A DNA stretch of 64,000 bases from Candidatus Forterrea multitransposorum CG_2015-17_Forterrea_25_41 (lineage in GTDB: Archaea; Iainarchaeota; Iainarchaeia; Iainarchaeales; CSSED10-239), in contig CP045477.1 of the NCBI GenBank assembly GCA_009392915.1, positions 1 through 64,000 on the forward strand, read 5' to 3'. This document shows, piece by piece, positions 2,208 to 30,766 of the stretch (the stretch's first letter is position 1; every line of letters begins with the position of its first letter). The position numbers were made by a program, and so were the translations under genes. The notes beneath the pieces were generated by a model that searched no databases, was not told the DNA's origin, and saw nothing but the letters and a program-made list of their open reading frames with translations.

Positions 2208-2210
2208 ATT

Positions 2211-5912: not shown

Positions 5913-5976
5913 CTTTAAATCTCCCCCTTAGCTAATATATTATATAAGCGATAATATTAAAATACTAATCATTTGT

Positions 5977-6495: not shown

Positions 6496-6497
6496 AA

Positions 6498-6887: not shown

Positions 6888-6901
6888 AGTTAATTTTTCC
6901 T

Positions 6902-7093: not shown

Positions 7094-7169
7094 AATTCTT
7101 CAAATAATTTATTGGTTATAAGATTATTTAAACCTTTTGTTCTTTATTTTTATTAAATATAATTAATAA

Positions 7170-7919
7170 ATGATTATCATGCAAAGATTAATAATTGTAA
7201 CTGGTGCAACTGGTGATTTAGGTAAAGAATATGTGAAAGTTTATTCCAAATTATCAGAAAATAAAGTTTATGCTATTTCAAGGCGAAAAGAAGACTTTCC
7301 AATAGAAGGTGTAATTTATCTTAATTGTGATTTAGAAAATAAAGATATAACTTTAAATGAAATTAATAAAATTTCTTTAGAGCACACCACTGAAATAGTA
7401 TTTATTCATCCTGTTGGAAAATTTAAGTTTGAAGAAAATGGAGACTTAATAAATAGTATTGATCAAGAAATATTTAAATCTAATTTAGATAGTTTTCATA
7501 ATGTTTTAAACCCTTTATTATTATTAAGAAAAGATAAAAATATTTTAATTAAATTAATTGCTTTTGGATCTTTAAGTGATTCTTTTAATGTACCTTGGTG
7601 GATTTCTTATAGTAAATCAAAACTTGCACTGAGAGCTGATATGAAGTCAATTTCTTTTTCTAAAAAAAATATTTGTTCTCTTTTTTTAAATTTAAGTAGT
7701 GTGAAAACTTTTAATGAACATAAAACAAGACCTTTTGCAGAAACTTCTTTTTGGCTTTCAGTTGATGAAATTGTAAAGAGATCTTTATCTATAATTGATT
7801 CTTTAAAAGAAAAATATACTGAAATTAATTTATATAATAATTCTCCTGAATATTATGAAGGTTATTACAAAGATTTTAATTTTTTAAAAGAAAAATGGTT
7901 AAAAGAAATGAAGGGCTAG
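7170..7919 (+). CDS. short-chain dehydrogenase/reductase family protein
   Basis: TGATGDLG nucleotide-binding motif and YSKSK (YxxxK) catalytic motif. Confidence 0.65.
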   Translation: MIIMQRLIIVTGATGDLGKEYVKVYSKLSENKVYAISRRKEDFPIEGVIYLNCDLENKDITLNEINKISLEHTTEIVFIHPVGKFKFEENGDLINSIDQEIFKSNLDSFHNVLNPLLLLRKDKNILIKLIAFGSLSDSFNVPWWISYSKSKLALRADMKSISFSKKNICSLFLNLSSVKTFNEHKTRPFAETSFWLSVDEIVKRSLSIIDSLKEKYTEINLYNNSPEYYEGYYKDFNFLKEKWLKEMKG

Positions 7920-7961
7920 AAGTCTTCTTTTTATTTGTTTTTATCTATAATATATATATTT

Positions 7962-10253
7962 ATGATTAAATCAATATATCTTGAAAATTGGAAAACCCAC
8001 CTTGATTCTAAGCTTTCCTTTCAAAAAGGAACAAACATACTCTTAGGTGTAATTGGTTCTGGAAAATCAAGTGTTGTTGATGCTATTTGTTATGCTTTAT
8101 ATGGTACATTTCCAACACTTTCAAACAGGAAAATAACTTTAGATGAAACTATAATGTTTAAACCTGTACAAAAAGAAAGTTTTAAGGTTATTTTAGAGCT
8201 TGTTCAAGAAAATAAATTATATTTAATAGAAAGAGAAGTATTTTCTGGAAATAAATCAAACTCTGCAAAAGTATATCTTGAAGGAAAGTTATTGGCTGGT
8301 CCTAAAAAAAGTGATGTTGATGAATTTATTTCAAAACTTTTAGGTATTGATTATAATCTTTTTATAAAAGTTGTATATTCTCAACAAAATGAAATTGATT
8401 ATTTTTTAAAAATAGCTCCTTCTAAAAGAAAAGAACAGTTTGATGATCTTTTTGGTATATCTCATTTTGAAAATATTAAAGTTTCAACAAGAGAAATTGA
8501 TAGACTTTTAAATCATGAAATTGATAAAAATGAACTTTTATTAAAACAAATAACTACTCAAATTTCAAATTATAATATAGAAGAACTTTTAGAAAAAGAA
8601 AAAGAAATAGCTGAAAAAATAACTTCTCTTGAAAAAGAAATTTTAGAAAAAGAAGTAAAAACTTTTTCTTTAAGTAAAGTAATTTCTGAAAAGAAGCTAG
8701 TTAAAGAAAAGCATGAATCCTTAACTTCTCAAATATCTTTATTTTCGTCCAGGCTTGAAGACTTTAATAAAGAATATACCTCTCTTTTAGAAAAAACTAA
8801 TCTTTCTTCTAAAGAAGAACTTGATCTCTTTGAAAAAGAGGTTTTTAAGAAAGAAAAATTCTTTAAAGAAAAACAAAATAAAAACAAAGAAACTGAGATT
8901 TTAAAAAAATCTTTAGATAACAAAATTTCTTTTTATGAAAATAATATTTTTCAAAACCAAGAAAGGATAAAAGAGCTTCTTTTAAAAATAGAAAAAGAAG
9001 AATTAACTATTCCTTTAATAGAGGAAAAGAAAAAATATCTTTTAGAAGAAATTGATTCTCTTAATATTTTAAAAATATCTTTACTTTCAAAACAAAAAGA
9101 TTTAGAAAAATCTTTTTATGAAATTTCTAAAGGCTTTTCAAACTGTCCTGTCTGTCAAACCCCTTTTACTGCAGATAAATTAACTGAAACTAAAGAGCAT
9201 ATAGATAAAGAGCTTTCAAGTCTATCTTTAAACCTAAAGGATTATTTAGAAAAAATAAAAGAAAAAGAAGATTTATTAAATCTGTTAAAAATAAAAGAAA
9301 AAACTTTAGAAAGAAATTTCTTAATTGAAAAACAAATTGAACAATTAAACAAAATAATTCTAGAAAATACTTATTTAAAAGAAAATGCCTTAACTGAAAT
9401 TAATTCTTTAGAAAAAATAGATGACTTGTCTGCTTTAGAAAAAGAAATTTTAAAAATAAAAGAGAGTCTTTCTCTTAAAAAAGAACTTTTAAAAATATCT
9501 GAAAAAATAAAAGAATACACCGAAAAAACAAAATTACAAAAAGAAGAGCTTTCAAAAATAAATTTTTCTCAAGAAGAATATCTAAATCTTTTAACAGATT
9601 ATAAAGGCTTAGAAAATAATTTCCTGCAAATAAAAGAATCCTTAACAAACTATAAATCCTTAAAAGAAAATTTAAAAAAACAATTAGAAAACCTAACCTC
9701 TCTTTCAAAACAAAAAGAAGAAGTAAGCCTTTCTTTTACAAAAATAAATAATAAAAAACAAGATCTTTCTTATTTTTTAAAAGCAATTGATAATAGCCAA
9801 CTACAGTTAAGAAAAGTTTTAATAGATAACATAAATCAAGCTCTTTCAATCATCTGGCCAAAAGTATATCCTTACAAAGATTATTTATCAGCAAGATTAA
9901 ATGCAGATAATGATTATATCTTAGAGGTCTTAACTTTAAAAAATAACTGGATAAGGGTTGAAGGTTTATTAAGTGGAGGAGAGAGGGCTTGTGCTTCACT
10001 TTCCATAAGGATTGCAATTTCTTTGATTCTTACAAAGAAATTAGGCCTTTTAATTCTTGATGAACCAACACATAATTTAGATGAAAAATCAATAGAGGCT
10101 TTATCAAATGTCTTAGAGGAAGAGCTTCCTGATCTTGTTGAGCAAATATTTATTGTGACTCATGATAATAAGCTTCTTGAAACAGTAAATGCAACTAAGT
10201 TTATAATAGAGAGAGATAAAGAAAACGATTCTGCTTCAAGAGTTAATTTTTAA
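7962..10253 (+). CDS. rad50: DNA double-strand break repair ATPase Rad50
   Basis: Walker A GVIGSGKSS, long coiled coils, zinc hook CPVCQ, signature LSGGE, Walker B LLILDEPT, H-loop VTHD. The ATG at 7962 is preferred over the upstream TTG of the ORF track. Confidence 0.9.
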   Translation: MIKSIYLENWKTHLDSKLSFQKGTNILLGVIGSGKSSVVDAICYALYGTFPTLSNRKITLDETIMFKPVQKESFKVILELVQENKLYLIEREVFSGNKSNSAKVYLEGKLLAGPKKSDVDEFISKLLGIDYNLFIKVVYSQQNEIDYFLKIAPSKRKEQFDDLFGISHFENIKVSTREIDRLLNHEIDKNELLLKQITTQISNYNIEELLEKEKEIAEKITSLEKEILEKEVKTFSLSKVISEKKLVKEKHESLTSQISLFSSRLEDFNKEYTSLLEKTNLSSKEELDLFEKEVFKKEKFFKEKQNKNKETEILKKSLDNKISFYENNIFQNQERIKELLLKIEKEELTIPLIEEKKKYLLEEIDSLNILKISLLSKQKDLEKSFYEISKGFSNCPVCQTPFTADKLTETKEHIDKELSSLSLNLKDYLEKIKEKEDLLNLLKIKEKTLERNFLIEKQIEQLNKIILENTYLKENALTEINSLEKIDDLSALEKEILKIKESLSLKKELLKISEKIKEYTEKTKLQKEELSKINFSQEEYLNLLTDYKGLENNFLQIKESLTNYKSLKENLKKQLENLTSLSKQKEEVSLSFTKINNKKQDLSYFLKAIDNSQLQLRKVLIDNINQALSIIWPKVYPYKDYLSARLNADNDYILEVLTLKNNWIRVEGLLSGGERACASLSIRIAISLILTKKLGLLILDEPTHNLDEKSIEALSNVLEEELPDLVEQIFIVTHDNKLLETVNATKFIIERDKENDSASRVNF

Positions 10254-10306
10254 ACTTTTTATTAAAAATAACCTTGTTTTTAAACATTTTTATCTATATA
10301 TTATTT

Positions 10307-11557
10307 ATGTCTTATATCCCTGATTTTCATAAGATTAAATACTTTACAGAAAAGTTTAAAGAATACTATCAAAATAATTATATCTCTTGTATATTGGATG
10401 TTTCAAAAAGAGAGTTTGGAATTGGTACTATACAATCTAAAATAAGTCAAAGACATTTATCTTTTGTATCTTTAGAAGATTTTAATAATTATTTAAGAAT
10501 TACTCCTCCTTTTTATGTTTCTTATTCAACAAGTTATTTTAAATATCCAGATAGAAGACCAATGGATAATAAAATATGGGAAGGTTCAGACATTGTTTAT
10601 GAGTTTGATTCAGATGATTATGATCTACCATGCCATGATAGACATAATACTTGGCAATGTACAAGTGAAGAATGTAATGAATGGGGTTATGGAAATTTAA
10701 CAGAATGCCCTAAATGTTTTTCAAAAACAAAGATTACAGAATGGACTTGTGATGAATGTTTAGGAAAAGCAAAAGAAGATACCTTAAGATTAGTTGATTT
10801 TTTAGAAAAAGAATTTAAATTAAATCCAGCAAGCTTTATTATTAGTTTTTCAGGTGCTAAAGGGTATCATGTAAGAATAACTGATAGAACAATAATTTCT
10901 TTATCTAAACCTGCAAGACTACAGATGATGAACTATATTTTAGCAAATGATTTAGAGCTTGAAAAATTAGGTTTTATAAAACAGAAAAAACTTTGGAAAA
11001 TACCACCTATAAAAGAAGCAGCTGGATGGTCTAAAAAGATTTTACATGGAATAATTGATATTTTTTCTTATGATGAAAAAAAGCTTATTAATTTATTTGG
11101 ACTTTCTCCAAAAAAAGCAAAACTTTTAAAGGATACAAAAGAAGATATTTTAAATAAGATGTATCATAATAATATATTAGTTGCTGATTTTTCTTCAAGT
11201 GATAAATTCTTTGAAGATGTTATAAATCATGTAATAAACAAGACTAGACTTAAAATAGACCCTCAATCATCTTCAGATATTTTTAAGATAATGAGGGTTC
11301 CAGATACTATTCATGGTGGTACTGGTTTTTTATCAACATATATTAAGACAAAAGAAGATTTAATTAATTTTGATCCTTTCAAAGATCCTGTTGTTTTAGG
11401 TACTATGGATCTAAAAAAAATAAAATTATTAAAACCAACACCTAAATTTAGAATAATTGACCAATATTATGGTCCTTATAATAAAGATGAGGTTTTAAAA
11501 CTTCCAGAAAAAGTATCAATGTTTTTAGTTCTTAAAGGGGTGGCAAATTTTGAGTGA
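10307..11557 (+). CDS. priS: DNA primase small (catalytic) subunit PriS
   Basis: Catalytic EFDSDD, GAKGYHVRI and RVPDTIHGGTG motifs, plus a Cys/His-rich zinc region. The ATG at 10307 is preferred. Confidence 0.85.
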   Translation: MSYIPDFHKIKYFTEKFKEYYQNNYISCILDVSKREFGIGTIQSKISQRHLSFVSLEDFNNYLRITPPFYVSYSTSYFKYPDRRPMDNKIWEGSDIVYEFDSDDYDLPCHDRHNTWQCTSEECNEWGYGNLTECPKCFSKTKITEWTCDECLGKAKEDTLRLVDFLEKEFKLNPASFIISFSGAKGYHVRITDRTIISLSKPARLQMMNYILANDLELEKLGFIKQKKLWKIPPIKEAAGWSKKILHGIIDIFSYDEKKLINLFGLSPKKAKLLKDTKEDILNKMYHNNILVADFSSSDKFFEDVINHVINKTRLKIDPQSSSDIFKIMRVPDTIHGGTGFLSTYIKTKEDLINFDPFKDPVVLGTMDLKKIKLLKPTPKFRIIDQYYGPYNKDEVLKLPEKVSMFLVLKGVANFE

Positions 11558-12116
11558 AGATTATAGTTTAGATTACGATGAATTAAGAAAAATTTATAGA
11601 CTTGAAACAAAGTCTCCCAAACTTACAAAATTAAATACTGATTTTTATAAGGAACTTAAAAAATTTCTTTCAGATGAAAGAAAAAAATATACTTCAGAGA
11701 TTGAAGAGTCTTTTTCTCATGCCACTATAAAAAAGTTTGAAACTTTAAAAAAAATGGTTGAAAAAATAAGAGAAATAAGAATGAAAAAATGTCTTAACCT
11801 TTGTTTAATGTATAGTAGAACAAATGATTTTGAAGAAGAAGGTTTAATTGATTTTGAAATTGATTTTGCAAAAGGTGTGATTAAATTAATTGATAAACAA
11901 ACAGAATTTTCACAAAATGTTTTTGGACTTTCTAAAAAAGCTAAAAAAATTGAAAATCAAAATCTTTGTAAAGTAAAATTTTTAGAGGAAGTTCCAACAT
12001 TTATTGGTGCTGATTTAAAGGAGTATGGTCCTTTTGAAAAAGAACAGGTTTGTGAGATTCCTGAAGATATGATTAAAATATTAGAATCAAAAAATCTTAT
12101 TAAAAAAATAGATTAA
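11550..12116 (+). CDS. probable GINS subunit (Gins51/Sld5-like)
   Basis: N-terminal pattern YDELRKIYRLE...LTKLNTDFYKELKKFL. Overlaps the priS stop codon, and priS-gins linkage is common in archaea. TTG start. Confidence 0.5.
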   Translation: MSEDYSLDYDELRKIYRLETKSPKLTKLNTDFYKELKKFLSDERKKYTSEIEESFSHATIKKFETLKKMVEKIREIRMKKCLNLCLMYSRTNDFEEEGLIDFEIDFAKGVIKLIDKQTEFSQNVFGLSKKAKKIENQNLCKVKFLEEVPTFIGADLKEYGPFEKEQVCEIPEDMIKILESKNLIKKID

Positions 12117-12132
12117 AAAGAGTTGATAATTA

Positions 12133-12897
12133 ATGGTTGATTTTCCAAATATAAACGATGTGGTAATTTGTAAAGTTACAAAAATAGCTGATTTTGGTGT
12201 TTTTGCAGAGCTTTTAGAGTATGATAATATGGAAGGGTTTGTGCATATTTCACAAATATCTTCTACATGGATAAAAAATATTCATAACCATGTAAAACAA
12301 AATCAAATAAGAGCTGCAAAAGTTTTAAAAGTTGATGAAGAAAAAAAACATATTGATATTTCTTTTAGTAGGATCACAGCTGCAGATGAAAAAAGAAAAA
12401 TTTCTGAATATAGATTATTTTTAAGATCTCAAAGTCTTTTGGGTGTAATTGCTCAAGAAATTGGTGAGTCTCAAGAAAAAATTTGGGAAGAAGTTGCAGA
12501 TCCAATTATTGAAGAAGAAAATTCTCTTTATAAAGGATTTTTAAATATCTTAAAACATGGTGGAGATTATTATTCTCAAATTGATCCTAAATATCATAAA
12601 GTTTTATTTGAAATTTTAGATAAAAATATTACTTTGAAAGATAAAGATATTTTAGGAATTATGACAATTACTTCAAGTAATTCAAATGGTTTTGAAAATA
12701 TTAAAAAAGTACTTTCTGAAGTTACTGAAAAATATCCTGACTGTAGAATAATTTATTTAGGTCCTGGAAAATATGAACTTAAAGTAACTTCTAAAGAATT
12801 TAAAACTTCTGCAAAAAAATTTGATTTAATTGTAGATGAAATTTCTAAAGGATTAAAGAAACATGCTTCTTTTGAAGTTGTTAAAAAAGATTCTTAA
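12133..12897 (+). CDS. eif2a: translation initiation factor aIF2 alpha subunit
   Basis: N-terminal S1 domain VICKVTKIADFGVFAELLEY...EGFVHISQIS; size 254 aa. Confidence 0.85.
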   Translation: MVDFPNINDVVICKVTKIADFGVFAELLEYDNMEGFVHISQISSTWIKNIHNHVKQNQIRAAKVLKVDEEKKHIDISFSRITAADEKRKISEYRLFLRSQSLLGVIAQEIGESQEKIWEEVADPIIEEENSLYKGFLNILKHGGDYYSQIDPKYHKVLFEILDKNITLKDKDILGIMTITSSNSNGFENIKKVLSEVTEKYPDCRIIYLGPGKYELKVTSKEFKTSAKKFDLIVDEISKGLKKHASFEVVKKDS

Positions 12898-15341: not shown

Positions 15342-15809
15342 ATGTACAAAGTATCGTGGACAGAGTTTGAAAGTCTAGCAATTGATCTTACTAAAAAGAT
15401 TAAATCTTCAAATAAAAACTTTTCATTTATAGTTGGGGTTAGTAGAGGTGGTCTTTTACTTTCAAGATTATTATCTTCAACTTTAGATTTACCTATGGGT
15501 GTAATTGCAGCAAAACATGTAGATGGAATTTATCATGTTGATAATTATATATCAACAATATATGATGTTGAAGGGGATATTCTTTTAGTTGATGATGTTA
15601 TGGATCAAGCTTCTGTTAATGTAATTTCAAAAATAAATAAAAATTATAAAAATATAAATTCTATAACTTCAGCATGTGTTTTTTATAAAGGTACAGAAAA
15701 AAGTTTTAAACCTGATTTTTATACAAGTAAAGTTGATGATTTTATAACCATTGTTTTTCCTTATCAAGAAAAATCAATTTTGAAAAATTTAGAAAACTGT
15801 GAGGATTAA
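15342..15809 (+). CDS. phosphoribosyltransferase family protein (purine PRTase-like)
   Basis: PRPP-binding-like ILLVDDVMDQAS; 155 aa. Confidence 0.6.
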   Translation: MYKVSWTEFESLAIDLTKKIKSSNKNFSFIVGVSRGGLLLSRLLSSTLDLPMGVIAAKHVDGIYHVDNYISTIYDVEGDILLVDDVMDQASVNVISKINKNYKNINSITSACVFYKGTEKSFKPDFYTSKVDDFITIVFPYQEKSILKNLENCED

Positions 15810-15817
15810 GATTAATT

Positions 15818-16279
15818 ATGAAAAAAAAAATGTCTAATAAACAAAATTTAATAATAGCTTTATTAATTATTTTAATAATTTTAGTAATATTTTTTATTGT
15901 TATATTTTCTGCAAATATTTTATATAGTAATATAAAAGAAAATAATTTAGATAATATAGATTATAATTTAACAATTTCAAAAGTAGATTTTAATTCTGAT
16001 AGGTTAGTAAATGTAGAAAATGATGTGAATTTGTCAGAATTAAATGAATTTACTTTACCAGAAAGTAAGCTTATTAATGAATATTTAATCACAAGTATAA
16101 ATATTTCTGATTTAAGAAATAAATATTCTTTTTTATTTGATGAAGCCTTAGTTTCTTCTTATGGTTATCTTCAAACAGAAAAAGGAGATTATATTTTAGA
16201 ATATAAAGATTATATTTTAGTTTTTAATAAAGATGAAAATCAAACAAAAAGTATCTGGATGATTGAATATTTAGAATAA
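15818..16279 (+). CDS. N-terminally membrane-anchored hypothetical protein
   Basis: One TM helix (LIIALLIILIILVIFFIVIF). No recognisable motifs. Confidence 0.4.
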   Translation: MKKKMSNKQNLIIALLIILIILVIFFIVIFSANILYSNIKENNLDNIDYNLTISKVDFNSDRLVNVENDVNLSELNEFTLPESKLINEYLITSINISDLRNKYSFLFDEALVSSYGYLQTEKGDYILEYKDYILVFNKDENQTKSIWMIEYLE

Positions 16280-16306
16280 TTTTAAATTTTAAAAAATGTG
16301 TTTTTT

Positions 16307-18844
16307 ATGGATGATGCAAATTTAATGCTTTTAAAAAAGAAAGTAAAAGCTATAAAACAATATAAAGGCCAAGGTACTCAACTTATAAGTCTTTATCTTC
16401 CACCTGATGCAGATAGAAGTTCTGCAACAAAACAATTAACTGATGAAATGAGTCAATCTTCAAATATTAAGAGTGCTCAGACTAGAAAAAATGTACAAGC
16501 AGCTTTAAAAAGAATTATTAATTATTTAAAACAAATTGATTTTAAACTTCCTGAAACAGGTTTAGTTTTATTTTCTGGAGATGTTTCAACTAATCCTTCT
16601 AAATCAGATGTAATTTTACTTGCAATTGCACCTCCTGTAAGACTTACAACTAAGCTTTATTGGTGTGATTCAACATTTCACATAGCTCCTTTAGAAGATA
16701 TGGCACAAACAGATGATGTTTATGGTTTAGTTGTTCTTGACAAACGAGAAGCAACAGTTGCTATTTTAAGAGGAAAATCTAAAGAAATTCTTTTTTCAGA
16801 AACCTCAAATGTTCCTGGTAAAACAAAAGCCGGGGGGCAATGTTTAAAAGATGCTTTTGTATCTTTATCTGATGGGAATTTAATAGATGTTAGTGAAATT
16901 TCTAAAAAGGATATTCTTTCTTCTATGAATTTTAAACAAAATAAATTAATTAATTCTAAGGTTTTAGATAATTGGTCAGTTTCTAAAAATAAAACATATA
17001 TTATTAAAACAAAAGCTCCTGGTACAGAAATAAAAGCTAGTGAAGATCATATATTTTTTGTTTTAACTCCAGATGGTGTTGTTGAAAAAGCTTCAAAAGA
17101 TTTAACTTTAAATGATTATTTGTTATTTCCAGAAAAATTATCTTATAAAAATAAAATTTGGTCTTTTGATACTAAAAAATATATTTCTAAATTAAATAAA
17201 CCTTCTATAAAGATACCTATAAAACTTAATAATGTATTTGCTAAATTTTTAGGTTATTTATTAGGTGATGGTTCTATTGAAACTGATAGATTAACTTTTT
17301 ATGAATCTAGAAAAGATGTTATTTTAGAATATAAAAAGTTATTTGATAAATATTTTAATGTAAATTCTTCTTTAACTTTTAGAGATTCTAAAAATTATTA
17401 TCAATTAAGAGTTAATTCAACTGCTCTTGTAAGATTAATTAAAGAAGAATTTAAGGAAATTAAAAAAGCAAGAGATTCTTTAATACCTTCTAAAATATTA
17501 ACTTCTTCTAATAAAATATTAGCTAATTTTTTAAAAGGATTTTATGATGCTGAAGGTTATATTAATACTTCTAGAAAATCAATAGATATTGGAATAAATA
17601 ATAAAAAAATTGCACAACAACTTCAATTATCATTATTAAGATTTTCAATTATTGGATCTTTACAAGAATATGATAATAAACAAAATCCTTATACAAATAA
17701 CCATAGGTTTGTGATTTCAATTTCTGATAAAGAGTCAATAGATTCTTTTGAAAAAAATATTAATTTTACTTCTTTTGAAAAGCAAAAAAAAATAAAAAAA
17801 ATTCAAAAATTAAAAACAAACATGAGTTTCTCAAGAACACTTCCTGTATATGGTAGTCAGGTTAGATCTGTTGTTACAAAACATGGTTATAATTTAGAAC
17901 TTTTCCCAAAAGTGAGTAGTTTTTTCAATAATAATAGAATGCTTAGTAAATGCTTTTTTAAAAGTTCTGTTTTAGATTATGTTAAAGATAAATCTCTTTT
18001 AAAAGATTTAATTAAATTTTATAATATGCCATTTTTTGCTGCAAAGATAAATTCTATATTTATTGAAAAAAAGAAAACAATTATGACAGACATTTCTGTT
18101 GCTAATAAATCTTTTATTGCAAATGGATTAATTGTTCATAATTCAGCACATAGATTCGAAAGACTAAGAGATAAATATGAAGAAGAGTTTTATAAGAGAG
18201 TAGGTTCTAAAGTAAATACTGCTTTTGTAGATCTTGATAATTTTAAAGGAATGATTGTTGGTGGTCCTGGACTTACTAAAAATGAATTTTTAGAAATTGG
18301 TGATTTAGACCACAGAATAAAAGATAAAGTTTTAGGAACTGTAGATACTTCTTATACAGATGAGTCAGGTATAAAAGAAGTTTTAGATAAATCTGAAGAT
18401 ATTTTAAAAGAAACTGGTTTAGTTCATGAAAGAAAATTAATTAATAAGTTTTTTGAAGACTTAGCAAAAACAGGCCTTGCAAATTATGGTTTTCAAGATG
18501 TAATTGATGCCTTAAATATTGGTAAAGCTTCAACTGTTTTAGTGTCTGAAGGTTTAGAATGGACTGTTTTAATTTTTAAATGTTTATCAGACAAATCTAG
18601 ATTTATAAAAATTGTTAAAGATAAACATGAAGTTTCTGATACTATCTCAAAATTTGAAAATTCTCCAACAGATTGTCCAGAAGGTAAAGCAGAACTTGTT
18701 GAAGAAGTTGATATATATGATTATTTTATAGATATTTCTAAAAATACAAGTGCAAAAGTTGAACTTATTTCTATTGAAACTTTAGAAGGTAAACAATTTT
18801 TTGAAACTTTTGGAGGGCTTGCAGCTTTCTTAAGATATAGGTAA
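16307..18844 (+). CDS. prf1: peptide chain release factor aRF1, interrupted by an intein
   Basis: The exteins join to ...VPGKTKAGGQ|SAHRFERLRDKY..., the canonical aRF1 GGQSxxRF region. NIKS-like SNIKSAQTR in the N-domain. Confidence 0.9.
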   Translation: MDDANLMLLKKKVKAIKQYKGQGTQLISLYLPPDADRSSATKQLTDEMSQSSNIKSAQTRKNVQAALKRIINYLKQIDFKLPETGLVLFSGDVSTNPSKSDVILLAIAPPVRLTTKLYWCDSTFHIAPLEDMAQTDDVYGLVVLDKREATVAILRGKSKEILFSETSNVPGKTKAGGQCLKDAFVSLSDGNLIDVSEISKKDILSSMNFKQNKLINSKVLDNWSVSKNKTYIIKTKAPGTEIKASEDHIFFVLTPDGVVEKASKDLTLNDYLLFPEKLSYKNKIWSFDTKKYISKLNKPSIKIPIKLNNVFAKFLGYLLGDGSIETDRLTFYESRKDVILEYKKLFDKYFNVNSSLTFRDSKNYYQLRVNSTALVRLIKEEFKEIKKARDSLIPSKILTSSNKILANFLKGFYDAEGYINTSRKSIDIGINNKKIAQQLQLSLLRFSIIGSLQEYDNKQNPYTNNHRFVISISDKESIDSFEKNINFTSFEKQKKIKKIQKLKTNMSFSRTLPVYGSQVRSVVTKHGYNLELFPKVSSFFNNNRMLSKCFFKSSVLDYVKDKSLLKDLIKFYNMPFFAAKINSIFIEKKKTIMTDISVANKSFIANGLIVHNSAHRFERLRDKYEEEFYKRVGSKVNTAFVDLDNFKGMIVGGPGLTKNEFLEIGDLDHRIKDKVLGTVDTSYTDESGIKEVLDKSEDILKETGLVHERKLINKFFEDLAKTGLANYGFQDVIDALNIGKASTVLVSEGLEWTVLIFKCLSDKSRFIKIVKDKHEVSDTISKFENSPTDCPEGKAELVEEVDIYDYFIDISKNTSAKVELISIETLEGKQFFETFGGLAAFLRYR
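16841..18142 (+). mobile_element. intein (434 aa) with LAGLIDADG homing endonuclease, inserted after the GGQ motif of aRF1
   Basis: Starts with Cys (CLKDAFVSLSDG, block A) and ends ...GLIVHN followed by Ser. LAGLIDADG blocks LGYLLGDGS and LKGFYDAEGY. In frame with the aRF1 exteins. Confidence 0.85.
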
Positions 18845-18856
18845 GGTGTTATTTTT

Positions 18857-19363
18857 TTGATAAAGACATTTAAAGCAAGAAAGATTACAAAAACTAATAT
18901 TGGTTCTAAATGTGGAATCGTAGATATTCGTAAAAGAATTCTAGAAAATAAAACTTATTCTATTTCCTATACTATAAAAGGTAAGTCTTTAGAACTTAAT
19001 TTTTTAAAACGATATCGAAAATCTAATCTTAGTGATTTTAAAAATATTTATTCTGATCTTTTAAATATTGCAAAAGAAAAAAAAGTTAAAAAAATATATA
19101 CTAGTTCTTGGGTATTTTCAGAAACTAAAGGTTTATCTGAAAGATTAGGTTTTAAACTTGTTAAGGGTACTGATAAAAAATTAAATCTAATTAAAGAAAA
19201 ATATCCTGATTATAAAATTATAGGTATTGAACAAAGATTTTCTACAGATTCAATAAATTATGGTGTAATTCCTTGTTTAGTTTTAGAAAATAAATCTTTA
19301 AAAAAAGAAGTTATAATAAATATGGATAAAAATATGCTCCCAATATATGTAAAGGAACTTTAA
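18857..19363 (+). CDS. hypothetical protein
   Basis: 168-aa ORF with a TTG start and no recognisable motifs. Confidence 0.3.
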   Translation: MIKTFKARKITKTNIGSKCGIVDIRKRILENKTYSISYTIKGKSLELNFLKRYRKSNLSDFKNIYSDLLNIAKEKKVKKIYTSSWVFSETKGLSERLGFKLVKGTDKKLNLIKEKYPDYKIIGIEQRFSTDSINYGVIPCLVLENKSLKKEVIINMDKNMLPIYVKEL

Positions 19364-23653: not shown

Positions 23654-23699
23654 TATTGTCTAACCTATTTTATTACTAGATAAAGGAGGTTAGACAATA
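23654..23699 (+). promoter_or_regulatory. 13-bp perfect stem-loop occluding the transposase SD and start codon
   Basis: TATTGTCTAACCT (23654-23666) pairs with AGGTTAGACAATA (23687-23699). The right arm covers part of GGAGG and the A of the ATG. Confidence 0.5.
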
Positions 23700-24661
23700 T
23701 GAATATTAAGAACGAAAAGATTAATAAAAGGAACTGGTCAAAGATAAATTATGGAAAAACAAGACAAATCTTGTTTTTACTAGATAAAAACATTATTTTT
23801 AGTGAAAATGAAAGACTAGTTTCCCAAAATAAAAACAAACCAGGAAGACAATTTATATATAGTGATAGAATAATAGAACTATTAATTGATCTTAAAAATT
23901 ATTTTAAATTTGATTATCGTAAACTACAGGCATTCTGCCTGTTGTTTAATAATGTTATAAAAATAAAAACACCTGACTTTACAACTATTTGTAGAAGAAT
24001 GCACAAATTAGAATTATTTCTAAAAAATATAAAAACAAAAAAAGAACCAACCTTTATAGCTATAGATGGTTCTGGACTTCAAACTACTAATCGAGGAGAA
24101 TGGCTTAGATTAATACACAAAAAAGGAAAAATAAACTTAAGAAATGGATTTGTAAAATTAGTGATTGCAACAGATGTTGCATCTGGAGAAATAACTGGAG
24201 TGTATATTTCAGATGATTCTGATTTTGAAAATAAAAGCTTATCAGATTTATTATACCAAACAATAAATAATCAAAACCAAGAAGTCAAAGGACTTCTTGG
24301 AGATGGGGCATACGATTCTTATGATAACTTTGATATGCTTGATGATATGGGAATAAAACCAATTATCAAAATCAGAAAGAATGCAATTACAACAGAACCT
24401 AATGACGATTATTTAAAAAGAAGAAGAAAACTTGGAAAAAAGAAAAAAATAAAAAGAATTGAAGTTGCAAAAAAGCAACTTAAAAATGTAGATGACTGGA
24501 AACAAAAAAATGAGTATAATAAAAGGTGGGTTGTTGAATACACGTTTAGTGTATTCAAAAGACTATTCGGACATAGTGTGTACTCTAAAAGAAAGAAATA
24601 TGTCAAAAATGAAGTAATTTCTAAAGTAAATTTGTATAATAAATTATTAAATATCAATTAA
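23699..24661 (+). CDS. DDE transposase, IS4/IS5 superfamily
   Basis: D (IAIDGSG), D (LLGDGAYDS) and an exact Y-x2-R-x3-E-x6-K signature (YNKRWVVEYTFSVFK). Confidence 0.85.
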   Translation: MNIKNEKINKRNWSKINYGKTRQILFLLDKNIIFSENERLVSQNKNKPGRQFIYSDRIIELLIDLKNYFKFDYRKLQAFCLLFNNVIKIKTPDFTTICRRMHKLELFLKNIKTKKEPTFIAIDGSGLQTTNRGEWLRLIHKKGKINLRNGFVKLVIATDVASGEITGVYISDDSDFENKSLSDLLYQTINNQNQEVKGLLGDGAYDSYDNFDMLDDMGIKPIIKIRKNAITTEPNDDYLKRRRKLGKKKKIKRIEVAKKQLKNVDDWKQKNEYNKRWVVEYTFSVFKRLFGHSVYSKRKKYVKNEVISKVNLYNKLLNIN

Positions 24662-24818: not shown

Positions 24819-26192
24819 ATGGCTATAGACAAAAGATTTTTTTTAGGGATAACTATTAGTAAAAAAAGAAAAGCAATTTCTCCTTTAATTGCCACTATTC
24901 TTTTAATAGTTGTTGCCGTTGCAATTATAGCTATTATTGTTTCCTGGGGAAAAGGATTTACCAATGATTCTTTAAGCAAAGCCTCTGGTCTTGAAATTTA
25001 CACTGAATCAGAAACTTCTTTTTACTTGCAAGTAAAAAATTCAATAAACGGAAGAACTGTTGTTCAATATAATCCTCCTTATAATTCTCCTCACACCTCT
25101 TTAACCATAACAGGTTATAGCCTACATGGTAACACGAATATTAATCCCATAGATCCACCAATTACAATAACTGCAAACCAAACTGCAGTTATTGATCATG
25201 GTATTTTATTTCCAGAATTAAATTTAGTTTTATATTTGGATAATGATCGAATGATTATTAAAACTGATCTTTTACAAACTATTAAATCTCCTCTTTCTTG
25301 TCCAGAAGGTTATGTTTCTGTTCCAGGAAACCACTTATATGGAACTATGAATGAAAGTGGGGGTTTTTGTGTTTCAAAATATGAGATGAAAATGGATAGA
25401 ACAGGAGATGGAATAGGAAATCTTGTAGCTGATTATCCTGATTGTAACACCGGTTCTTTAACATATAATACTTATAGTTATGAATTATGCCCTACACCAG
25501 GCACTTTAGTTTCTACTCCAGAAGGTTCTCCCATAGCAAGAATCACACAAACTGAAAGCATATCAGCCTGTGAAGCTATTGGTGGTCATTTAATAACAAA
25601 TAACGAATGGATGACCATTGTACGAAACATAGAACAAGTTCCATCTAATTGGTCAGGTGGAGCAGTTGGTGATGGCTACCTTCCAAGAGGGAATTCATCT
25701 TCTTCAGGAGCTATGGAAGGCTTTGATCAACTTTCAGGAACTACCAAAAGAACCTTGACCTTAACAAACGGAGAGGTAATTTGGGATTTAGCAGGAAATG
25801 TAAGACAATGGACCAGTGACACTATTCAAAGAAAGGACCAGCCTGATGGTTTTAATAATGTAGATGATAGTAATAATACTTCTGGTTTTAATTGGTTTGA
25901 TTATTTTAAGGGCGGTGGAGTAGATCAATATATTTATTCTGATAATTTAGGTAACACCACCTTAAAGTATAAAGATTTATTTTTATTAACTAGTAATACT
26001 TATAATGCAACAGATAATGGTGTTGGAAGGATTTATACTTATAGTGATTTTAGTGATACTAGTACAACTGAGTACGCGTTTTTGCGCGGTGGTCACTGGG
26101 GCAATGGCACTAATGCCGGGGTCTTGCACCTGGTCTTGAACAAGACTCCTGGGTCCCGGAGCATCCTCATCGGCCTGCGCTGTGTCAAGTAG
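24819..26192 (+). CDS. DGR target protein: archaeal pilin-type class III signal peptide, linker, FGE/C-type-lectin-fold domain with C-terminal variable region
   Basis: N-terminus KKRKAISPLIATILLIVVAVAIIAIIV (DUF1628-like). FGE-sulfatase-like motifs SKYEM, GGHLITNNEW, WDLAGNVRQW, RGGHW and IGLRCVK. The last ~39 codons are the VR matching the TR downstream. Confidence 0.9.
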   Translation: MAIDKRFFLGITISKKRKAISPLIATILLIVVAVAIIAIIVSWGKGFTNDSLSKASGLEIYTESETSFYLQVKNSINGRTVVQYNPPYNSPHTSLTITGYSLHGNTNINPIDPPITITANQTAVIDHGILFPELNLVLYLDNDRMIIKTDLLQTIKSPLSCPEGYVSVPGNHLYGTMNESGGFCVSKYEMKMDRTGDGIGNLVADYPDCNTGSLTYNTYSYELCPTPGTLVSTPEGSPIARITQTESISACEAIGGHLITNNEWMTIVRNIEQVPSNWSGGAVGDGYLPRGNSSSSGAMEGFDQLSGTTKRTLTLTNGEVIWDLAGNVRQWTSDTIQRKDQPDGFNNVDDSNNTSGFNWFDYFKGGGVDQYIYSDNLGNTTLKYKDLFLLTSNTYNATDNGVGRIYTYSDFSDTSTTEYAFLRGGHWGNGTNAGVLHLVLNKTPGSRSILIGLRCVK

Positions 26193-26195
26193 TTT
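26075..26195 (+). repeat. DGR variable repeat (VR)
   Basis: 121 bp aligns without gaps to 27300-27420. There are 13 mismatches, 12 of them at TR adenines. GC-rich compared with its surroundings. Confidence 0.9.
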
Positions 26196-26232: not shown

Positions 26233-26263
26233 AGACGGGTGAGACGGCAAGACGGCCAGACGG
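26233..26263 (+). repeat. four tandem AGACGG motifs in a GC-rich patch downstream of the VR
   Basis: AGACGGgtgAGACGGcaAGACGGccAGACGG with 9/8/8-bp spacing. No ORF covers it. Confidence 0.6.
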
Positions 26264-26362
26264 AAGAAGCCATGGCAACCTAAACGTTTCAAGATTGTTT
26301 TTGCAAAAAAATGAAAAAACGTATTTGTGAAGTTTTAAAAAAAAGAAATGAGTGTGATTTTT

Positions 26363-26498: not shown

Positions 26499-26885
26499 AT
26501 GAGTTTAGTTGGAAATGAAAAAGGAATTCTAAATTTTGGTGTTTACAAGGAGCTTTTCCCAATCGTTATTGAAACTTATAATTTTTTAGAAAATAATAAA
26601 TCTTTATTTAAAGTAGATTTTGTTTATACAGATACTGTTAAAAATTTAATAGATATTCTTTCTTTTCTTTCCAAAGGGTATAATAAATTTCATTCTAATG
26701 AAAAATCTTTACTTTACTCTTATTCAAGAGATTGTGTTTCTACAACCCAATCTAATCTTTTAATATTATCTGAACTTAATAAAGATCTCTCAAAAGAAAA
26801 AACCTTATATTTTTATAATCAATTTGAGGATAAAATAAAGTATTTTAATGGTTTAATAAAAAAGATTGAAGAAAATAAAAACTAG
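26499..26885 (+). CDS. divergent four-helix-bundle (Avd-like) protein
   Basis: 128 aa with predicted helical repeats that loosely parallel Avd (VYKELFPIVIETYNFL..., LLILSELNKDL..., YFNGLIKKIE). Positioned directly upstream of avd. Confidence 0.4.
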   Translation: MSLVGNEKGILNFGVYKELFPIVIETYNFLENNKSLFKVDFVYTDTVKNLIDILSFLSKGYNKFHSNEKSLLYSYSRDCVSTTQSNLLILSELNKDLSKEKTLYFYNQFEDKIKYFNGLIKKIEENKN

Positions 26886-26896: not shown

Positions 26897-27226
26897 ATGT
26901 TATTTGACTTAAAGTTATATAAAGAAACTTATAACTTTTTACTTTATATTTATCCTGAAATAAATAAATTCCCTAAATCAGATAAATATTCTTTAGGAGA
27001 GGATATTAAAAAAACAACTATTTCTTTAATGTCAAATATTGTTCTTTTTTCAAAGCATAATGAAAATACTTTAAAAGAAGCAGATAAAAACTTAGAATTA
27101 CTAAGAATATATATTAGGCTTTCTTTTGATTTAAAAATAATCTCTTTTAAAAAATATGAGGTTATTTCAAGGCAATTAAATGATATTGGTAATTTATTAG
27201 GTGGTCTTTTAAAACAAAAGATTTAA
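26897..27226 (+). CDS. avd: DGR accessory variability determinant (Avd; four-helix-bundle / 23S rRNA-IVS protein family)
   Basis: LYKETYNFLLYIYPEINKFPKSDKYSLGEDIKKTTISLMSNI matches the family pattern. 109 aa, located between the target gene and the TR. Confidence 0.8.
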   Translation: MLFDLKLYKETYNFLLYIYPEINKFPKSDKYSLGEDIKKTTISLMSNIVLFSKHNENTLKEADKNLELLRIYIRLSFDLKIISFKKYEVISRQLNDIGNLLGGLLKQKI

Positions 27227-27299
27227 ATATTTTTTCAACTAATAGTTATGTTGTTCTTTTAAATAAAAAGAATAGGGCTTTTACAGAAAAAAACAGGTG

Positions 27300-27420
27300 C
27301 GCGTTTTTGCGCGGTGGTAACTGGAACAATGGCACTAATGCCGGGGTCTTGAACCTGAACTTGAACAATACTCCTGGGAACCGGAACAACAACATCGGCC
27401 TGCGCTGTGTCAAGTAGTTT
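27300..27420 (+). repeat. DGR template repeat (TR)
   Basis: Non-coding copy of the VR, rich in AAC/AAT triplets in the VR frame (G N W N N G T N A G V L N L N L N N T P G N R N N N I G L R C V K). Lies 258 bp upstream of the RT gene. Confidence 0.9.
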
Positions 27421-27678: not shown

Positions 27679-28695
27679 ATGAAATCATACAATAACCTTT
27701 GGCAAGAATTCACTTCTTTTAAAAATATTTTTAATGCCTATAAAAAAGCAAGAAAGTCCACACCAAACAAAAAGTATATCTTGCAATTTACCACAAATTT
27801 AGAAAAGGAGTTATTCTTATTACAAGATCAATTAATTTCAGAAAATTTTCAATTTTCTCCTTACAGAAGTTTTAAAGTTTATGAACCTAAAGAAAGAACA
27901 ATAAGTGCACCTATTTTCAGGGATGTTGTTGTTCAGCATGCCATAATAAACATTATTGAACCTATTTTTGATAAAACCTTTATAGATAACTCTTTTGCTT
28001 GTAGAAAAGGAAAAGGCACACATAAAGGGCTTTTTGAAATTAAAAAAGTAATTCAAACCCCAAATCATCCAAAATACTATTTAAAACAAGATGTAAAGAA
28101 ATACTTTCCTTCAGTTCATAAACCTACCTTAAAAGAAATAATTTTTAAAAGAATTAAGGATGCAAGATTACTTTCTCTAATATATAAAATAATTGATAGT
28201 TATTCTTTTGATTTAAATCAAATTCAAAAAGGTATCCCTATAGGTAATTTAACCTCTCAGTTGTTTGCAAATATTTATTTAAACCATTTAGATCAGTATG
28301 TTAAGCATTCTTTAAAAATTAAACATTATTATAGATATGTAGATGATTTTTTAATATTTTCAAACAATAAAAGAAAATTACATGTTTTTAGAAGAAAAAT
28401 AAAATTATTTTTAAGTAAAGAACTATTATTAGATGTTCCAAAAAATAAAACTTATATAAACTTAGTAAGTAAAGGAGTTGATTTTTTAGGTTATAAGGTA
28501 TTTCCTTCAAACATAAGATTAAGAAAATCAAATCTTAAAAGATTTCTTCTAAGACAAAATAAAAATAACTTTCTTCTAAAAAAAAATCAAATTTCTAAAC
28601 TTAACTATAATTTTTCTCTTTTTTCTTTTTTAGGTTATGCAAAGCATGCAAACTCTTATAATCTCTTAAGTACTTTAAATATTAATGAGTTATAG
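27679..28695 (+). CDS. DGR-type reverse transcriptase
   Basis: RT motifs SAPIFRDVVVQHAI, IPIGNLTSQLFANIYL (DGR-typical [I/L]GxxxSQ) and YVDDFLIF. 338 aa, adjacent to the TR. Confidence 0.9.
   Translation: MKSYNNLWQEFTSFKNIFNAYKKARKSTPNKKYILQFTTNLEKELFLLQDQLISENFQFSPYRSFKVYEPKERTISAPIFRDVVVQHAIINIIEPIFDKTFIDNSFACRKGKGTHKGLFEIKKVIQTPNHPKYYLKQDVKKYFPSVHKPTLKEIIFKRIKDARLLSLIYKIIDSYSFDLNQIQKGIPIGNLTSQLFANIYLNHLDQYVKHSLKIKHYYRYVDDFLIFSNNKRKLHVFRRKIKLFLSKELLLDVPKNKTYINLVSKGVDFLGYKVFPSNIRLRKSNLKRFLLRQNKNNFLLKKNQISKLNYNFSLFSFLGYAKHANSYNLLSTLNINEL
28589..28687 (+). repeat. 99-bp direct repeat, copy 1 (3' end of the RT gene)
   Basis: Identical base for base to 30138-30236. Confidence 0.9.
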
Positions 28696-28838
28696 TTTAT
28701 TTTTATTATGGGCACTTGAGCGTCTATTTTAAACTTAAATTATAATCTTTTACTAACGCACTATACCTTAATTATAATCTTCTATCAAAAGACTATATTT
28801 AAAAATGTTTTTATTATATATTATATTAGTGATAAAAT

Positions 28839-30104
28839 ATGGATAAAGCTTTTTTAAGAAACGTTGTTTCTGACCAGTATGAAGATTTAAAAGATGTTTC
28901 AAAAACAATACAAAGATATGATTCAAAAGAAATAGCGCGCTTTGTAAATAATCCTGCTATATCTATAATTTCAGGAGTAAGGCGTTGTGGTAAGTCCACT
29001 TTTTTAGAGCAGATAATAAATTTATATTATAAAAATAACTTTTATTATTTTGATTTTTCTGATGAAAGAATTGCAAAATTTGAAACTGCTGACTTTCAAA
29101 CATTATATGAGGTGTTTTTAGAAAAATTTGGAAAAAGACAGGCTTTTTTCTTTGATGAAATACAAGGAGTTCCAGAATGGAATAAATTTGTTAATAGAAT
29201 GAAAAAGATTGGGCATAAATGTTTTGTAACCGGTTCAAATTCAAATTTGTTAAGTCAAGAAATATCTACTTATCTAACAGGAAGACATATTGATAAAATC
29301 TTATTCCCTTTTTCCTTTAAAGAATATTTAACGTATAAAAATATTAATGTAGATTTAGATTCTACAAAATCAAGAACCTTAATTATTAAAGAGTTTAAAA
29401 ATTACTTTAAAATAGGTGGTTTTCCAGAGGTTGTTTTAACAAACGATACTTCAATTTTATTAAATATTTATTCTGACATAATTTCTAAAGATATAATTGA
29501 AAGATTTAGGATTAATGATGTTTCTTTATTTAAAGAATTTTGTAATTATGTAATTTCTTTATCTACGAATGAATTTACTTTTAAATCATTAAAAGATAAT
29601 TTTAATATTCAGAATATTACTACTGTTTCAAACTATCTTGATTATCTTAAATTAACTTACCTTGTTTATGAAGTTAAAAGATTTTCTTCTTCATTACAAA
29701 AATTAAATAAATATCCAAAAAAATATTATTGTATAGATAATGGTTTATTAAATAAAGTGGGTTTTGGATATTCAATAGAGGAAACTAGATTTTTAGAAAA
29801 TCAAGTTTTTATTGAACTTTGGAGAAATAATCCGCAATCTGAAATTTATTATTATAGAGATAAGGATAATAAAGAATGTGATTTTTTATTGTTAAATGAT
29901 AGAAAAGTAGTTAAGGCTATTCAAGTGTGTTTTGCTTTTAAAAAGATAGATACTAGAAAAAGAGAAATAGAAGGTTTACTATCTGCTTTAAAAGAGTTTA
30001 ATCTAAATTATGGCGAAATTATTACTTTTGAGCATAAAGAAAAATTAAAGATAGATGGAAAAGTAATAGAGATGATTCCTGTATATGAGTGGTTATTAAA
30101 ATAA
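28839..30104 (+). CDS. AAA-family ATPase (AAA_14 + DUF4143 type)
   Basis: Walker A SGVRRCGKST, Walker B FFFDEIQ; 421 aa. Sits between the two 99-bp repeat copies. Confidence 0.75.
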   Translation: MDKAFLRNVVSDQYEDLKDVSKTIQRYDSKEIARFVNNPAISIISGVRRCGKSTFLEQIINLYYKNNFYYFDFSDERIAKFETADFQTLYEVFLEKFGKRQAFFFDEIQGVPEWNKFVNRMKKIGHKCFVTGSNSNLLSQEISTYLTGRHIDKILFPFSFKEYLTYKNINVDLDSTKSRTLIIKEFKNYFKIGGFPEVVLTNDTSILLNIYSDIISKDIIERFRINDVSLFKEFCNYVISLSTNEFTFKSLKDNFNIQNITTVSNYLDYLKLTYLVYEVKRFSSSLQKLNKYPKKYYCIDNGLLNKVGFGYSIEETRFLENQVFIELWRNNPQSEIYYYRDKDNKECDFLLLNDRKVVKAIQVCFAFKKIDTRKREIEGLLSALKEFNLNYGEIITFEHKEKLKIDGKVIEMIPVYEWLLK

Positions 30105-30137: not shown

Positions 30138-30236
30138 AAATTTCTAAACTTAACTATAATTTTTCTCTTTTTTCTTTTTTAGGTTATGCAAAGCATGCAA
30201 ACTCTTATAATCTCTTAAGTACTTTAAATATTAATG
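30138..30236 (+). repeat. 99-bp direct repeat, copy 2 (orphan duplicate of the RT 3' end)
   Basis: Identical to 28589-28687. It is no longer attached to an RT ORF. Confidence 0.9.
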
Positions 30237-30336
30237 GTTTTATAGTGTAGATTCTCTTTGCATTAAAAATATTGTTTTTGAAAAAAACAAAGCTTTAAAT
30301 TTTGTTTATTTATATAATATATTAGGTGAAAGCAAT

Positions 30337-30549
30337 ATGAAATATAGAGTTTTAATAGAACAAGACGAAGATGGTATCTTTGTTGCTGAATGCCCTAGTC
30401 TTCCAGGTGCAATTTCTCAAGGAAAAACAAGAGAAGAAGCAATAATAAATATTAAAGAAGCCATAAAAGGTTATCTTGAAAGTTTAAAGATAGCTAATGA
30501 ACCAATTCCTTCTCCAATATCTGAAGAAATAATTGATATTTATGGATAA
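30337..30549 (+). CDS. hicB: HicB-family antitoxin (UPF0150)
   Basis: YRVLIEQDEDGIFVAECPSLPGAISQGKTREEAIINIKEAI matches the HicB/UPF0150 pattern. Confidence 0.8.
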   Translation: MKYRVLIEQDEDGIFVAECPSLPGAISQGKTREEAIINIKEAIKGYLESLKIANEPIPSPISEEIIDIYG

Positions 30550-30766
30550 ACTGCCTATTATATCTGGTCAAGATTTAATCAAATTACTTCTAAAATTAGA
30601 TTATCAAGTTCATCATCAAACTGGATCACATATTATCTTAAGACAAAATAAAGAACCTTTTAGAAGATTAACAATTCCAAACCATAAAGAAATTTCAATA
30701 GGGACTTTAAGAGCAATTATAAGGCAAGTTGGAATAACAAGAGAAGAATTTGTTAAATTATTCTAA
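30542..30766 (+). CDS. hicA: HicA-family mRNA interferase toxin
   Basis: SGQDLIKLLLKLDY...QTGSHIILRQ...LTIPNHKEISIGTLRAIIRQ. The ATG overlaps the hicB stop (ATGGATAA). Confidence 0.85.
   Translation: MDKLPIISGQDLIKLLLKLDYQVHHQTGSHIILRQNKEPFRRLTIPNHKEISIGTLRAIIRQVGITREEFVKLF

Follow-up and report, generated by a model that had tools for sequence, protein, structure and literature searches.

Where does an archaeon carry the protein that its diversity-generating retroelement (DGR) rewrites? DPANN archaea and bacteria of the candidate phyla radiation (CPR) have DGRs unusually often, and targets with a C-type-lectin (CLec) fold are known in DPANN archaea (PMC4372165, PMC5006420), in papers that make no mention of a pilin, signal peptide or transmembrane segment. 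Archaeal and CPR targets are typically without a recognisable transmembrane or other domain (Roux et al. 2021, PMC8144416). The question arises for a locus in the first 64,000 nt of contig CP045477.1 (forward strand; hereafter the window) of Candidatus Forterrea multitransposorum CG_2015-17_Forterrea_25_41, where a DGR target gene lies at 24819–26192 (+). Our analysis indicates that its 457-aa product is probably a modular type IV pilin-like protein, in which a DGR-diversified CLec-fold head is grafted C-terminally onto an archaeal type IV pilin stem.

The retroelement and its lectin-fold target

The open reading frame (ORF) described in an earlier note on this DNA was confirmed in the ORF list, and the motifs quoted there from its translation (KKRKAISPLIATILLIVVAVAIIAIIV, SKYEM, NNEW, GNVRQW, RGGHW and IGLRC) are all present. 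NCBI lists an identical protein as NCT58966.1, 'hypothetical protein GW776_05680 [archaeon]', and it occurs on contigs as long as 839,632 bp. Its AlphaFold2 (AF2) model has a pLDDT of 89.6 and a pTM of 0.84.

The locus holds a complete DGR in the order target, 128-aa ORF, bAvd, template repeat (TR) and reverse transcriptase (RT). The variable region (VR) occupies 26072–26195 (+), with the diversified codons at aa 426–451 (26094–26171), and the TR occupies 27297–27420 (+). The two 124-nt repeats are 89% identical with 14 mismatches, 12 of which fall at TR adenines, each at the first or second base of an AAY/ANN codon. The invariant stretch at the 3′ end of the VR, CATCGGCCTGCGCTGTGTCAAGTAGTTT, is also present in the TR and resembles an initiation of mutagenic homing (IMH) sequence. 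A pattern in which the TR adenines are degenerate matches the VR and the TR only, where shuffled sequences expect 0 matches, and no further target of this TR was found with it in the window. The pattern had no match in the metagenome_contigs collection either; as the TR itself was not matched there, the collection apparently lacks these contigs. Read in the VR frame, the TR contains 12 AAY codons and 3 other codons that begin with A, a capacity of ~10^16 stop-free protein variants. Position 26144 is G in the window but T in both the TR and a sister strain, a change of N442K.

The accessory protein bAvd (109 aa; 26897–27226, +) matches PF22296 (E=2.2e-21), and the RT (338 aa; 27679–28695, +) carries the IGNLTSQLFANIYL (IGNLTSQ) and YVDD motifs and matches RVT_1 (E=1.5e-21). 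The 128-aa ORF between target and Avd (26499–26885, +) is present in every cassette copy. It has no Pfam or NCBIfam match and a weak BLASTP similarity to Avd (E=0.008), and it is possibly a second, divergent Avd-like accessory protein. The Bordetella phage DGR has a hairpin downstream of its VR; none was found 3′ of the VR here, where the DNA fold has a z-score of 0.77. A GC-rich island lies ~40 nt past the VR (26236–26275), with four GACGG repeats at a spacing of 8–9 nt; the spacer around the island is AT-rich. Two N-x-T glycosylation sequons fall within the VR, at 26103–26111 and 26139–26147 (aa 429–431 and 441–443). Since they lie on mutable AAY codons and the window encodes the oligosaccharyltransferase AglB (55538–57490), mutagenesis by the DGR could add or remove sites of glycosylation.

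The element is active in nature, as the differences between strains are confined to or concentrated in the VR. Two strain proteins differ from that of the window by 10 residues (P0121) and by 1 residue (P0122), all inside aa 426–451. A sister contig shows 25 nucleotide differences across 7,374 bp, 18 of them in the 124-nt VR and just 7 in the remaining ~7.2 kb; 14 of the 18 are at TR-A positions. Similarly, among 61 homologues the columns that correspond to TR AAY codons have an entropy of 3.24 bits vs 1.14 bits for the other VR columns, indicating that the whole family is diversified at the same places.

The diversified codons belong to a head (aa 160–457; 25296–26192, +) that the earlier note had assigned to the FGE-sulfatase/CLec fold. 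This assignment is upheld both by Pfam FGE-sulfatase, which scores 29.5 bits against a gathering cut-off of 23.3 (aa 234–366), and by the model, whose best structural matches are DGR variable proteins, TaqVP first among them. The head is thus predicted to adopt a C-type-lectin fold, its C-terminus carrying the VR, which spans the last strands, where the note had placed it, together with their loops. In the strand at 436–442, the variable positions 437, 439 and 441 alternate with invariant leucines at 436, 438 and 440, as would be expected for a single exposed face. The catalytic cysteine pair of human FGE (C336/C341) lies in the C-terminal segment; by this placement the pair is absent from the target, as its last 200 residues include one cysteine only (C455) and the segment in question is the hypervariable VR. 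An enzymatic role is therefore unlikely.

The pilin stem and the pilus genes of the genome

The target begins with a predicted class III signal leader (aa 1–19, MAIDKRFFLGITISKKRKA; 24819–24875, +), followed by the hydrophobic α1 helix or H-domain of the mature pilin (aa 20–53, ISPLIATILLIVVAVAIIAIIVSWGKGFTNDSLS; 24876–24977, +) and by a β-sandwich globular pilin domain (aa 60–155; 24996–25283, +). The true start codon could lie further downstream, making the leader shorter. Archaeal prepilins have G, A or S at −1 and a charged residue at −2 of the cleavage site, ahead of a hydrophobic domain (PMC4371748). The predicted site of the target, after Ala19, reads ...KKRK-A/ISPLIATILLIVVAVAIIAIIVSWGKGFT (KRK-A/ISPLIA, the slash marking cleavage), with Lys at −2, Ala at −1 and the hydrophobic domain following. 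In 82 homologues with an archaeal-type N-terminus, position −1 is A, S or G in every case and position −2 is K or R in 81 of the 82; the motif [KR][AGS]/[ILV]SP stands directly before the hydrophobic stretch, and the leaders upstream of it are otherwise unrelated.

For the pilin-like, DUF1628-type class III signal proposed in the earlier note, the curated models disagree. TIGR02537 of NCBIfam (archaellin/type IV pilin N-terminal domain) recognises aa 17–47 at 24.1 bits (cut-off 20), whereas Pfam Pilin_N (DUF1628, PF07790) reaches 16.9 bits against a gathering threshold of 25.2. The description was too narrow, in that the N-terminus offers more than a signal: aa 20–155 form a complete pilin-like domain. 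In the AF2 model, a 32-residue helix (22–53) packs on a seven-strand sandwich (aa 60–155), the arrangement of a long N-terminal helix on a β-sandwich that defines the pilin fold. Structural matches of the whole chain include archaeal pilins, and the target sequence alone matches 8fk7_A (E=1.4e-3). No segment of the family is better conserved than the α1 helix, whose mean column entropy is 1.0 bit vs 1.6–2.1 bits in the others.

Genes for pilus machinery were sought in ~125 kb, or ~15% of the genome, made up of the window and three flanking regions. A locus that is 100% identical to window positions 1–12207 and reaches 8.6 kb further left (L014) carries a type IV pilus locus at its positions 15542–19069, 3.3–6.9 kb left of window position 1. 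It consists of two T2SSF genes, which encode a PilC/TadBC-type platform, and then three genes for short pilins of 147, 159 and 153 aa with a stem like that of the DGR target; no ATPase gene adjoins it. The 159-aa protein (L014 16076–16555) is a candidate major pilin. Over the first 35 mature residues it is 85% identical to the target, with the DNA just 68% identical, which points to selection on the protein and not to recent gene conversion. Such protein-level selection on a shared α1 helix is as expected for co-assembly. Pfam Pilin_N and Arch_flagellin score below threshold or do not match on these short pilins and the other paralogues.

The same stem recurs on proteins with other heads. A Kelch β-propeller and PKD protein that is not a DGR target (45423–47465, +; Kelch_1 E=2.5e-35, PKD E=2.1e-8) shares it at 24 of 34 residues, slightly short of the ~25 of 34 counted earlier. 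The shared module is real; its copy on the Kelch protein scores 12.3 bits with TIGR02537, below the cut-off. Three tandem stem genes lie elsewhere in the genome (L005 8515–13288) and encode a 494-aa protein, the CLec paralogue P0044 and a 617-aa protein, the first and last of which are LamG-like. Their stems are 97–100% identical to one another in protein and 89–93% identical in nucleotides over 105 nt. Within 10 kb of P0044 there is neither an RT nor a TR, and the C-terminus of this paralogue does not follow the VR scaffold. At least eight proteins of the genome thus combine one stem with different heads, which bears out the suggestion that the stem is a reusable module for export or anchoring.

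A search for a prepilin peptidase, proposed in the earlier note as a check, yielded a Peptidase_A24 gene (P0126, 283 aa, PF01478; NCBI 'prepilin peptidase [archaeon]') 8 kb downstream of the tandem trio and adjoining SRP54/FtsY. The accession numbers of the peptidase (NCP79468 / NCQ07235) belong to the blocks that also contain those of the RT (NCP79646 / NCQ07413), the Kelch protein (NCP79629) and a target variant, which points to a place for the peptidase in the target's genome. The 839,632-bp contig carries the peptidase as well as the RT. Peptidase, platform and short-pilin genes are all present in the target's own genome. The companion check, for a pilus ATPase, gave no PilB/T2SSE in the window, in its flanks or around the peptidase.

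A second pilin class is indicated by proteins whose class III signal has Gln at +1. QVSxE-type Gln+1 prepilins are recognised by EppA in methanogens. In the window, two small proteins of 129 and 63 aa (6498–7093, −) have the signal KAQVSLEY (PF04021 Class_IIIsignal, E=3.8e-4), and the 63-aa protein is called as a gene at L014 5115–5306. A gene for an M50B-like membrane (metallo)peptidase (5977–6495, −) adjoins them. Gln+1 signals of the forms KAQVSLEY and KGQVSLEF occur at window 5977–7093 (−) and at L014 12598–14026, and four more small proteins with a hydrophobic N-terminus are clustered beside Orc1/Cdc6.

Head and stem combinations in other genomes

The head belongs to a family with 933 database matches. 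When the N-termini of the 120 best homologues were typed, 82 proved to be of the archaeal Pilin_N type, 2 of the Gln+1 QVSxE type and 6 of the bacterial GFTLIELL type; some family members have a signal-less LamG-like N-terminus. One head that occurs independently on three stem types points to export or assembly of the type IV pilin kind as the functional requirement. Homologue P0070 joins PKD repeats and a CLec VR to a stem identical, over the stretch shown, to that of the Kelch protein, indicating that the modules recombine.

A survey of species-representative genomes, in which 79 loci were classified, extends this picture to bacteria. The closest of these genomes, 'Candidatus Iainarchaeum archaeon', matches at 81% protein identity, which makes the organism of the window a DPANN archaeon of Iainarchaeota type. 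The survey contains 9 archaeal pilin fusions, 6 of them with an RT, and 24 full-length bacterial type IV pilin fusions, 9 of them with an RT within 6 kb. The bacterial prepilin fusions are found mostly in Saccharibacteria, Paceibacteria and other Patescibacteria, and CLec fusions of the GFTLIELL type with an RT within 6 kb come from CPR and other bacterial metagenome-assembled genomes (L035, L042, L043, L054, L066, L070, L079, L094 and L095). DGR-diversified type IV pilins thus appear to be common in Patescibacteria. Two CPR loci (L012/L013) have the cassette order target, bAvd, RT, as in the archaeal locus, and locus L009 retains a decayed VR/TR pair. The presence of the head on both archaeal and bacterial stems suggests either transfer of head and cassette between domains with local replacement of the stem, or repeated convergent fusion.

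The window itself is an AT-rich (~25% GC) segment of an archaeal chromosome with genes for Orc1/Cdc6, PCNA, primase, aRF1, TBP and AglB, within which the DGR is located in a small island of accessory genes. The target gene is immediately preceded by an insertion sequence (IS) with a DDE_Tnp_1 transposase (23699–24661). Ahead of the IS, the population shows two different sequence contexts (L001/L019 vs L002/L018), and one 441-kb contig (L003) stops 209 nt before the target, which together suggest IS-mediated rearrangement at the DGR. On the other side of the cassette are an AAA_14/DUF4143 ATPase gene (28839–30104) and then a HicB/HicA toxin-antitoxin pair (30336–30765), directly after the DGR and AAA_14 genes. 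A direct repeat of ~105 nt, 97% identical (28589–28696 and 30138–30246), duplicates the 3′ end of the RT gene just past the AAA_14/DUF4143 gene, a pattern that insertion of the ATPase gene at the RT gene's end, with a duplication, would leave. Elsewhere in the window, the gene for the peptide chain release factor aRF1 (16298–18844) is split by an intein that contains a LAGLIDADG endonuclease; Intein_splicing and LAGLIDADG_3 are the Pfam families recorded on the identical L001 gene. At 41014–44025, two genes upstream of the Kelch/PKD protein, lies the gene for a HerA/DUF87-type ATPase of 1003 aa whose N-terminus has a long acidic (SEDNN)n repeat. A 960-aa fusion of metallo-beta-lactamase/ODP (flavodiiron-like) with pyruvate:ferredoxin oxidoreductase (POR) gamma/alpha is encoded at 2211–5093 (−), adjoining the POR beta subunit.

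Placement of the target protein and related systems

We propose that the precursor would enter the membrane by its N-terminus, and that the A24 prepilin peptidase would remove the basic leader after Lys-Ala. The conserved α1 helix would then let the mature protein join the filament of short pilins as a low-abundance or tip subunit, and the 85% identity of this helix to that of the 159-aa pilin encoded beside the platform genes makes entry into the same filament possible. An alternative placement is that of a pilin-like anchor held in the membrane; in either arrangement, the head of ~300 aa would lie outside the cell. The adjacent DGR, comprising Avd, TR and RT, makes a cDNA of the TR in which adenines are met by random bases, and replaces the VR. 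As many as 15 codons in the terminal strands and loops of the head are rewritten in this way, with ~10^16 possible proteins. The face so varied would bind an external ligand, such as other cells, particles or viruses. Within the filament, low abundance or a tip position seems most plausible, as modelled for bacterial modular pilins (PMC8179133). Host-cell attachment and an episymbiotic role, as envisaged in the earlier note, may follow, and escape from pilus-binding viruses may equally be the purpose of the variation.

Several observations weigh against a DGR-diversified pilin. The Pilin_N score of the target is below the gathering threshold, and PF07790 is detected at E<=0.01 in just 14 of 61 family members. 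The target gene is outside any pilus operon, between the IS element and the rest of the DGR, and the ~125 kb inspected contain no PilB/T2SSE assembly ATPase. A head of 300 aa is also bulky for a filament subunit. As for the retroelement, neither the P0022 locus nor that of P0103 shows an RT or a TR within 7 kb, two VR/TR mismatches are not at adenines (26074, at the repeat edge, and 26144), and the sister strain (L019) has three synonymous VR changes at TR cytosines (26108, 26117 and 26130) with an identical TR.

Part of this evidence fits a processed class III-signal protein that remains outside any long pilus, as a membrane anchor, a short pseudopilus or a bindosome-like scaffold, in the manner of the Sulfolobus sugar-binding proteins with borrowed pilin signals, whose head is a surface receptor or binding protein. 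We regard this as rather unlikely, yet it is the main alternative. In its favour are the position of the gene outside the pilus locus, the assembly ATPase that was not found in the ~125 kb inspected, and a stem that is common to several kinds of large head (CLec, Kelch/PKD, and LamG-like of 494 and 617 aa). It accounts less readily for the full pilin β-sandwich between helix and head, unlike bindosome subunits (PMC4371748), for an α1 helix that is the best-conserved part of the family, or for the contrast of 85% protein with 68% DNA identity to a short pilin encoded near platform genes. An ordinary uncleaved signal-anchor, in which the target would be a type II membrane protein and its pilin likeness would be a matter of hydrophobic composition, strikes us as improbable. 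Hydrophobic low-complexity helices can produce spurious hidden Markov model matches, Pilin_N stays below threshold and the Kelch stem fails TIGR02537 at 12.3 bits, all of which would suit such an anchor. The target itself, however, exceeds the TIGR02537 cut-off and has whole-chain structural matches to archaeal pilins. The motif [KR][AGS]/[ILV]SP is invariant in 82 homologues despite unrelated leaders, the head is also found on canonical bacterial GFTLIELL prepilin and Gln+1 EppA-type N-termini, and the genome encodes an A24 peptidase.

Two further explanations concern the origin and chemistry of the head. Cassette and target might derive from an integrated virus or other mobile element, the protein being a viral receptor-binding protein like the phage protein Mtd. 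The DGR is indeed flanked by the IS transposase, the AAA_14/DUF4143 ATPase and HicAB, the local GC content is 0.30 vs ~0.24, some family members have a signal-less LamG-like N-terminus, and the gene for TaqVP, the best structural match, is described as part of a prophage (bioRxiv 10.1101/2024.11.15.621889). This origin was rejected as very improbable, because genes for capsid, tail or integrase are absent nearby, the locus has housekeeping genes on its flanks in every strain, and the stem is the host's own, common to chromosomal pilins near platform genes. Public annotations of homologues raise the other explanation, that of an enzyme of the FGE/SUMF1/EgtB family, with NCBI naming several of them 'SUMF1/EgtB/PvdO family nonheme iron enzyme'. 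JGI uses 'flagellin-like protein'. Such names mislead, and the enzyme reading, which we consider scarcely credible, was likewise rejected: the best structural matches are DGR variable proteins and not enzymes, the C-terminal segment, in which FGE has its catalytic cysteines, is a hypervariable VR with C455 as its single cysteine, and the target is predicted to be exported on a pilin stem.

The phage tail-fibre protein Mtd and TvpA are not known to be pilins. Compared with the DGR variable proteins of CLec fold, namely TaqVP (PDB 5VF4), TvpA (2Y3C), Mtd (1YU0) and the archaeal AvpA, the target stands apart in that an archaeal type IV pilin stem carries its head. A comparable architecture is that of bacterial modular type IV pilins, such as Streptococcus sanguinis PilB (vWA) and PilC (lectin) and CofB of enterotoxigenic Escherichia coli (ETEC), which join a class III signal and a small pilin module to a bulky C-terminal ligand-binding module and have a predicted tip location and an adhesin role (PMC8179133). 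Their heads are static, whereas that of the target is hypermutated, and the archaeal stem of the target has no N-methylation motif and no Glu5. The dataset of that study includes 8 bacterial proteins with the combination IPR012902-IPR005532 (prepilin N-terminus and FGE-sulfatase), with no link to DGRs (PMC8179133). DGR-rewritten CLec heads on a pilin-like N-terminal domain are found in the Bacteroides Type V tip adhesins BfrT, BthT and BunT, in a genome that holds many modular pilin genes (bioRxiv 10.1101/2024.11.15.621889); the mechanism of Type V pili, however, relies on a lipoprotein and strand exchange and has no relation to type IV pili, and they belong to another domain of life.

Among archaea, Haloferax volcanii PilA1-6 similarly have a near-identical H-domain in several proteins of one genome, with cleavage sites RA/VS and DA/VS, and the large binding proteins of the Sulfolobus bindosome make use of pilin signals together with the PibD/PilB/PilC machinery (PMC4371748). 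Neither system is hypervariable, and bindosome subunits are substrate-binding proteins with an acquired pilin-type signal and not pilins (PMC4371748). A bacterial parallel is offered by the Saccharibacterium TM7x, an ultrasmall episymbiont that uses type IV pili and lectin-like minor pilins for host binding (PMC11623550), and CPR homologues of the target head sit on bacterial pilin N-termini. TM7x differs in being bacterial, and the study of it reports no DGR (0 mentions). No paper that links DGRs to type IV pili was found in the searchable literature, including that on DPANN, Saccharibacteria and Patescibacteria/CPR, a search that did not cover Paul et al. 2017 (Nat Microbiol). CLec-fold archaeal DGR targets, bacterial modular type IV pilins and DGR-diversified Type V tips were already known, and against this literature a DGR head on a type IV pilin appears to be new.

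A broader reading, which we put forward tentatively, is that the ultrasmall DPANN archaea and CPR bacteria share a strategy in which a homologous, DGR-reprogrammable head is placed on whichever pilin stem the cell's own machinery accepts, be it of the archaeal Pilin_N, archaeal Gln+1 or bacterial N-methyl type, giving a pilus-tip adhesin that a population could rewrite in its specificity. For one large family of targets, the locus offers a concrete and testable answer to the question posed at the outset, with the variable head carried on a type IV pilin. If true, the shared strategy would supply the missing localisation and function for the large class of CPR and DPANN DGR targets without recognisable membrane or functional domains. 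Host binding in cultivated episymbionts is mediated by type IV pili (PMC11623550), and a rewritable head of this kind, if confirmed, would give direct molecular access to the way in which episymbionts find their hosts or change them.

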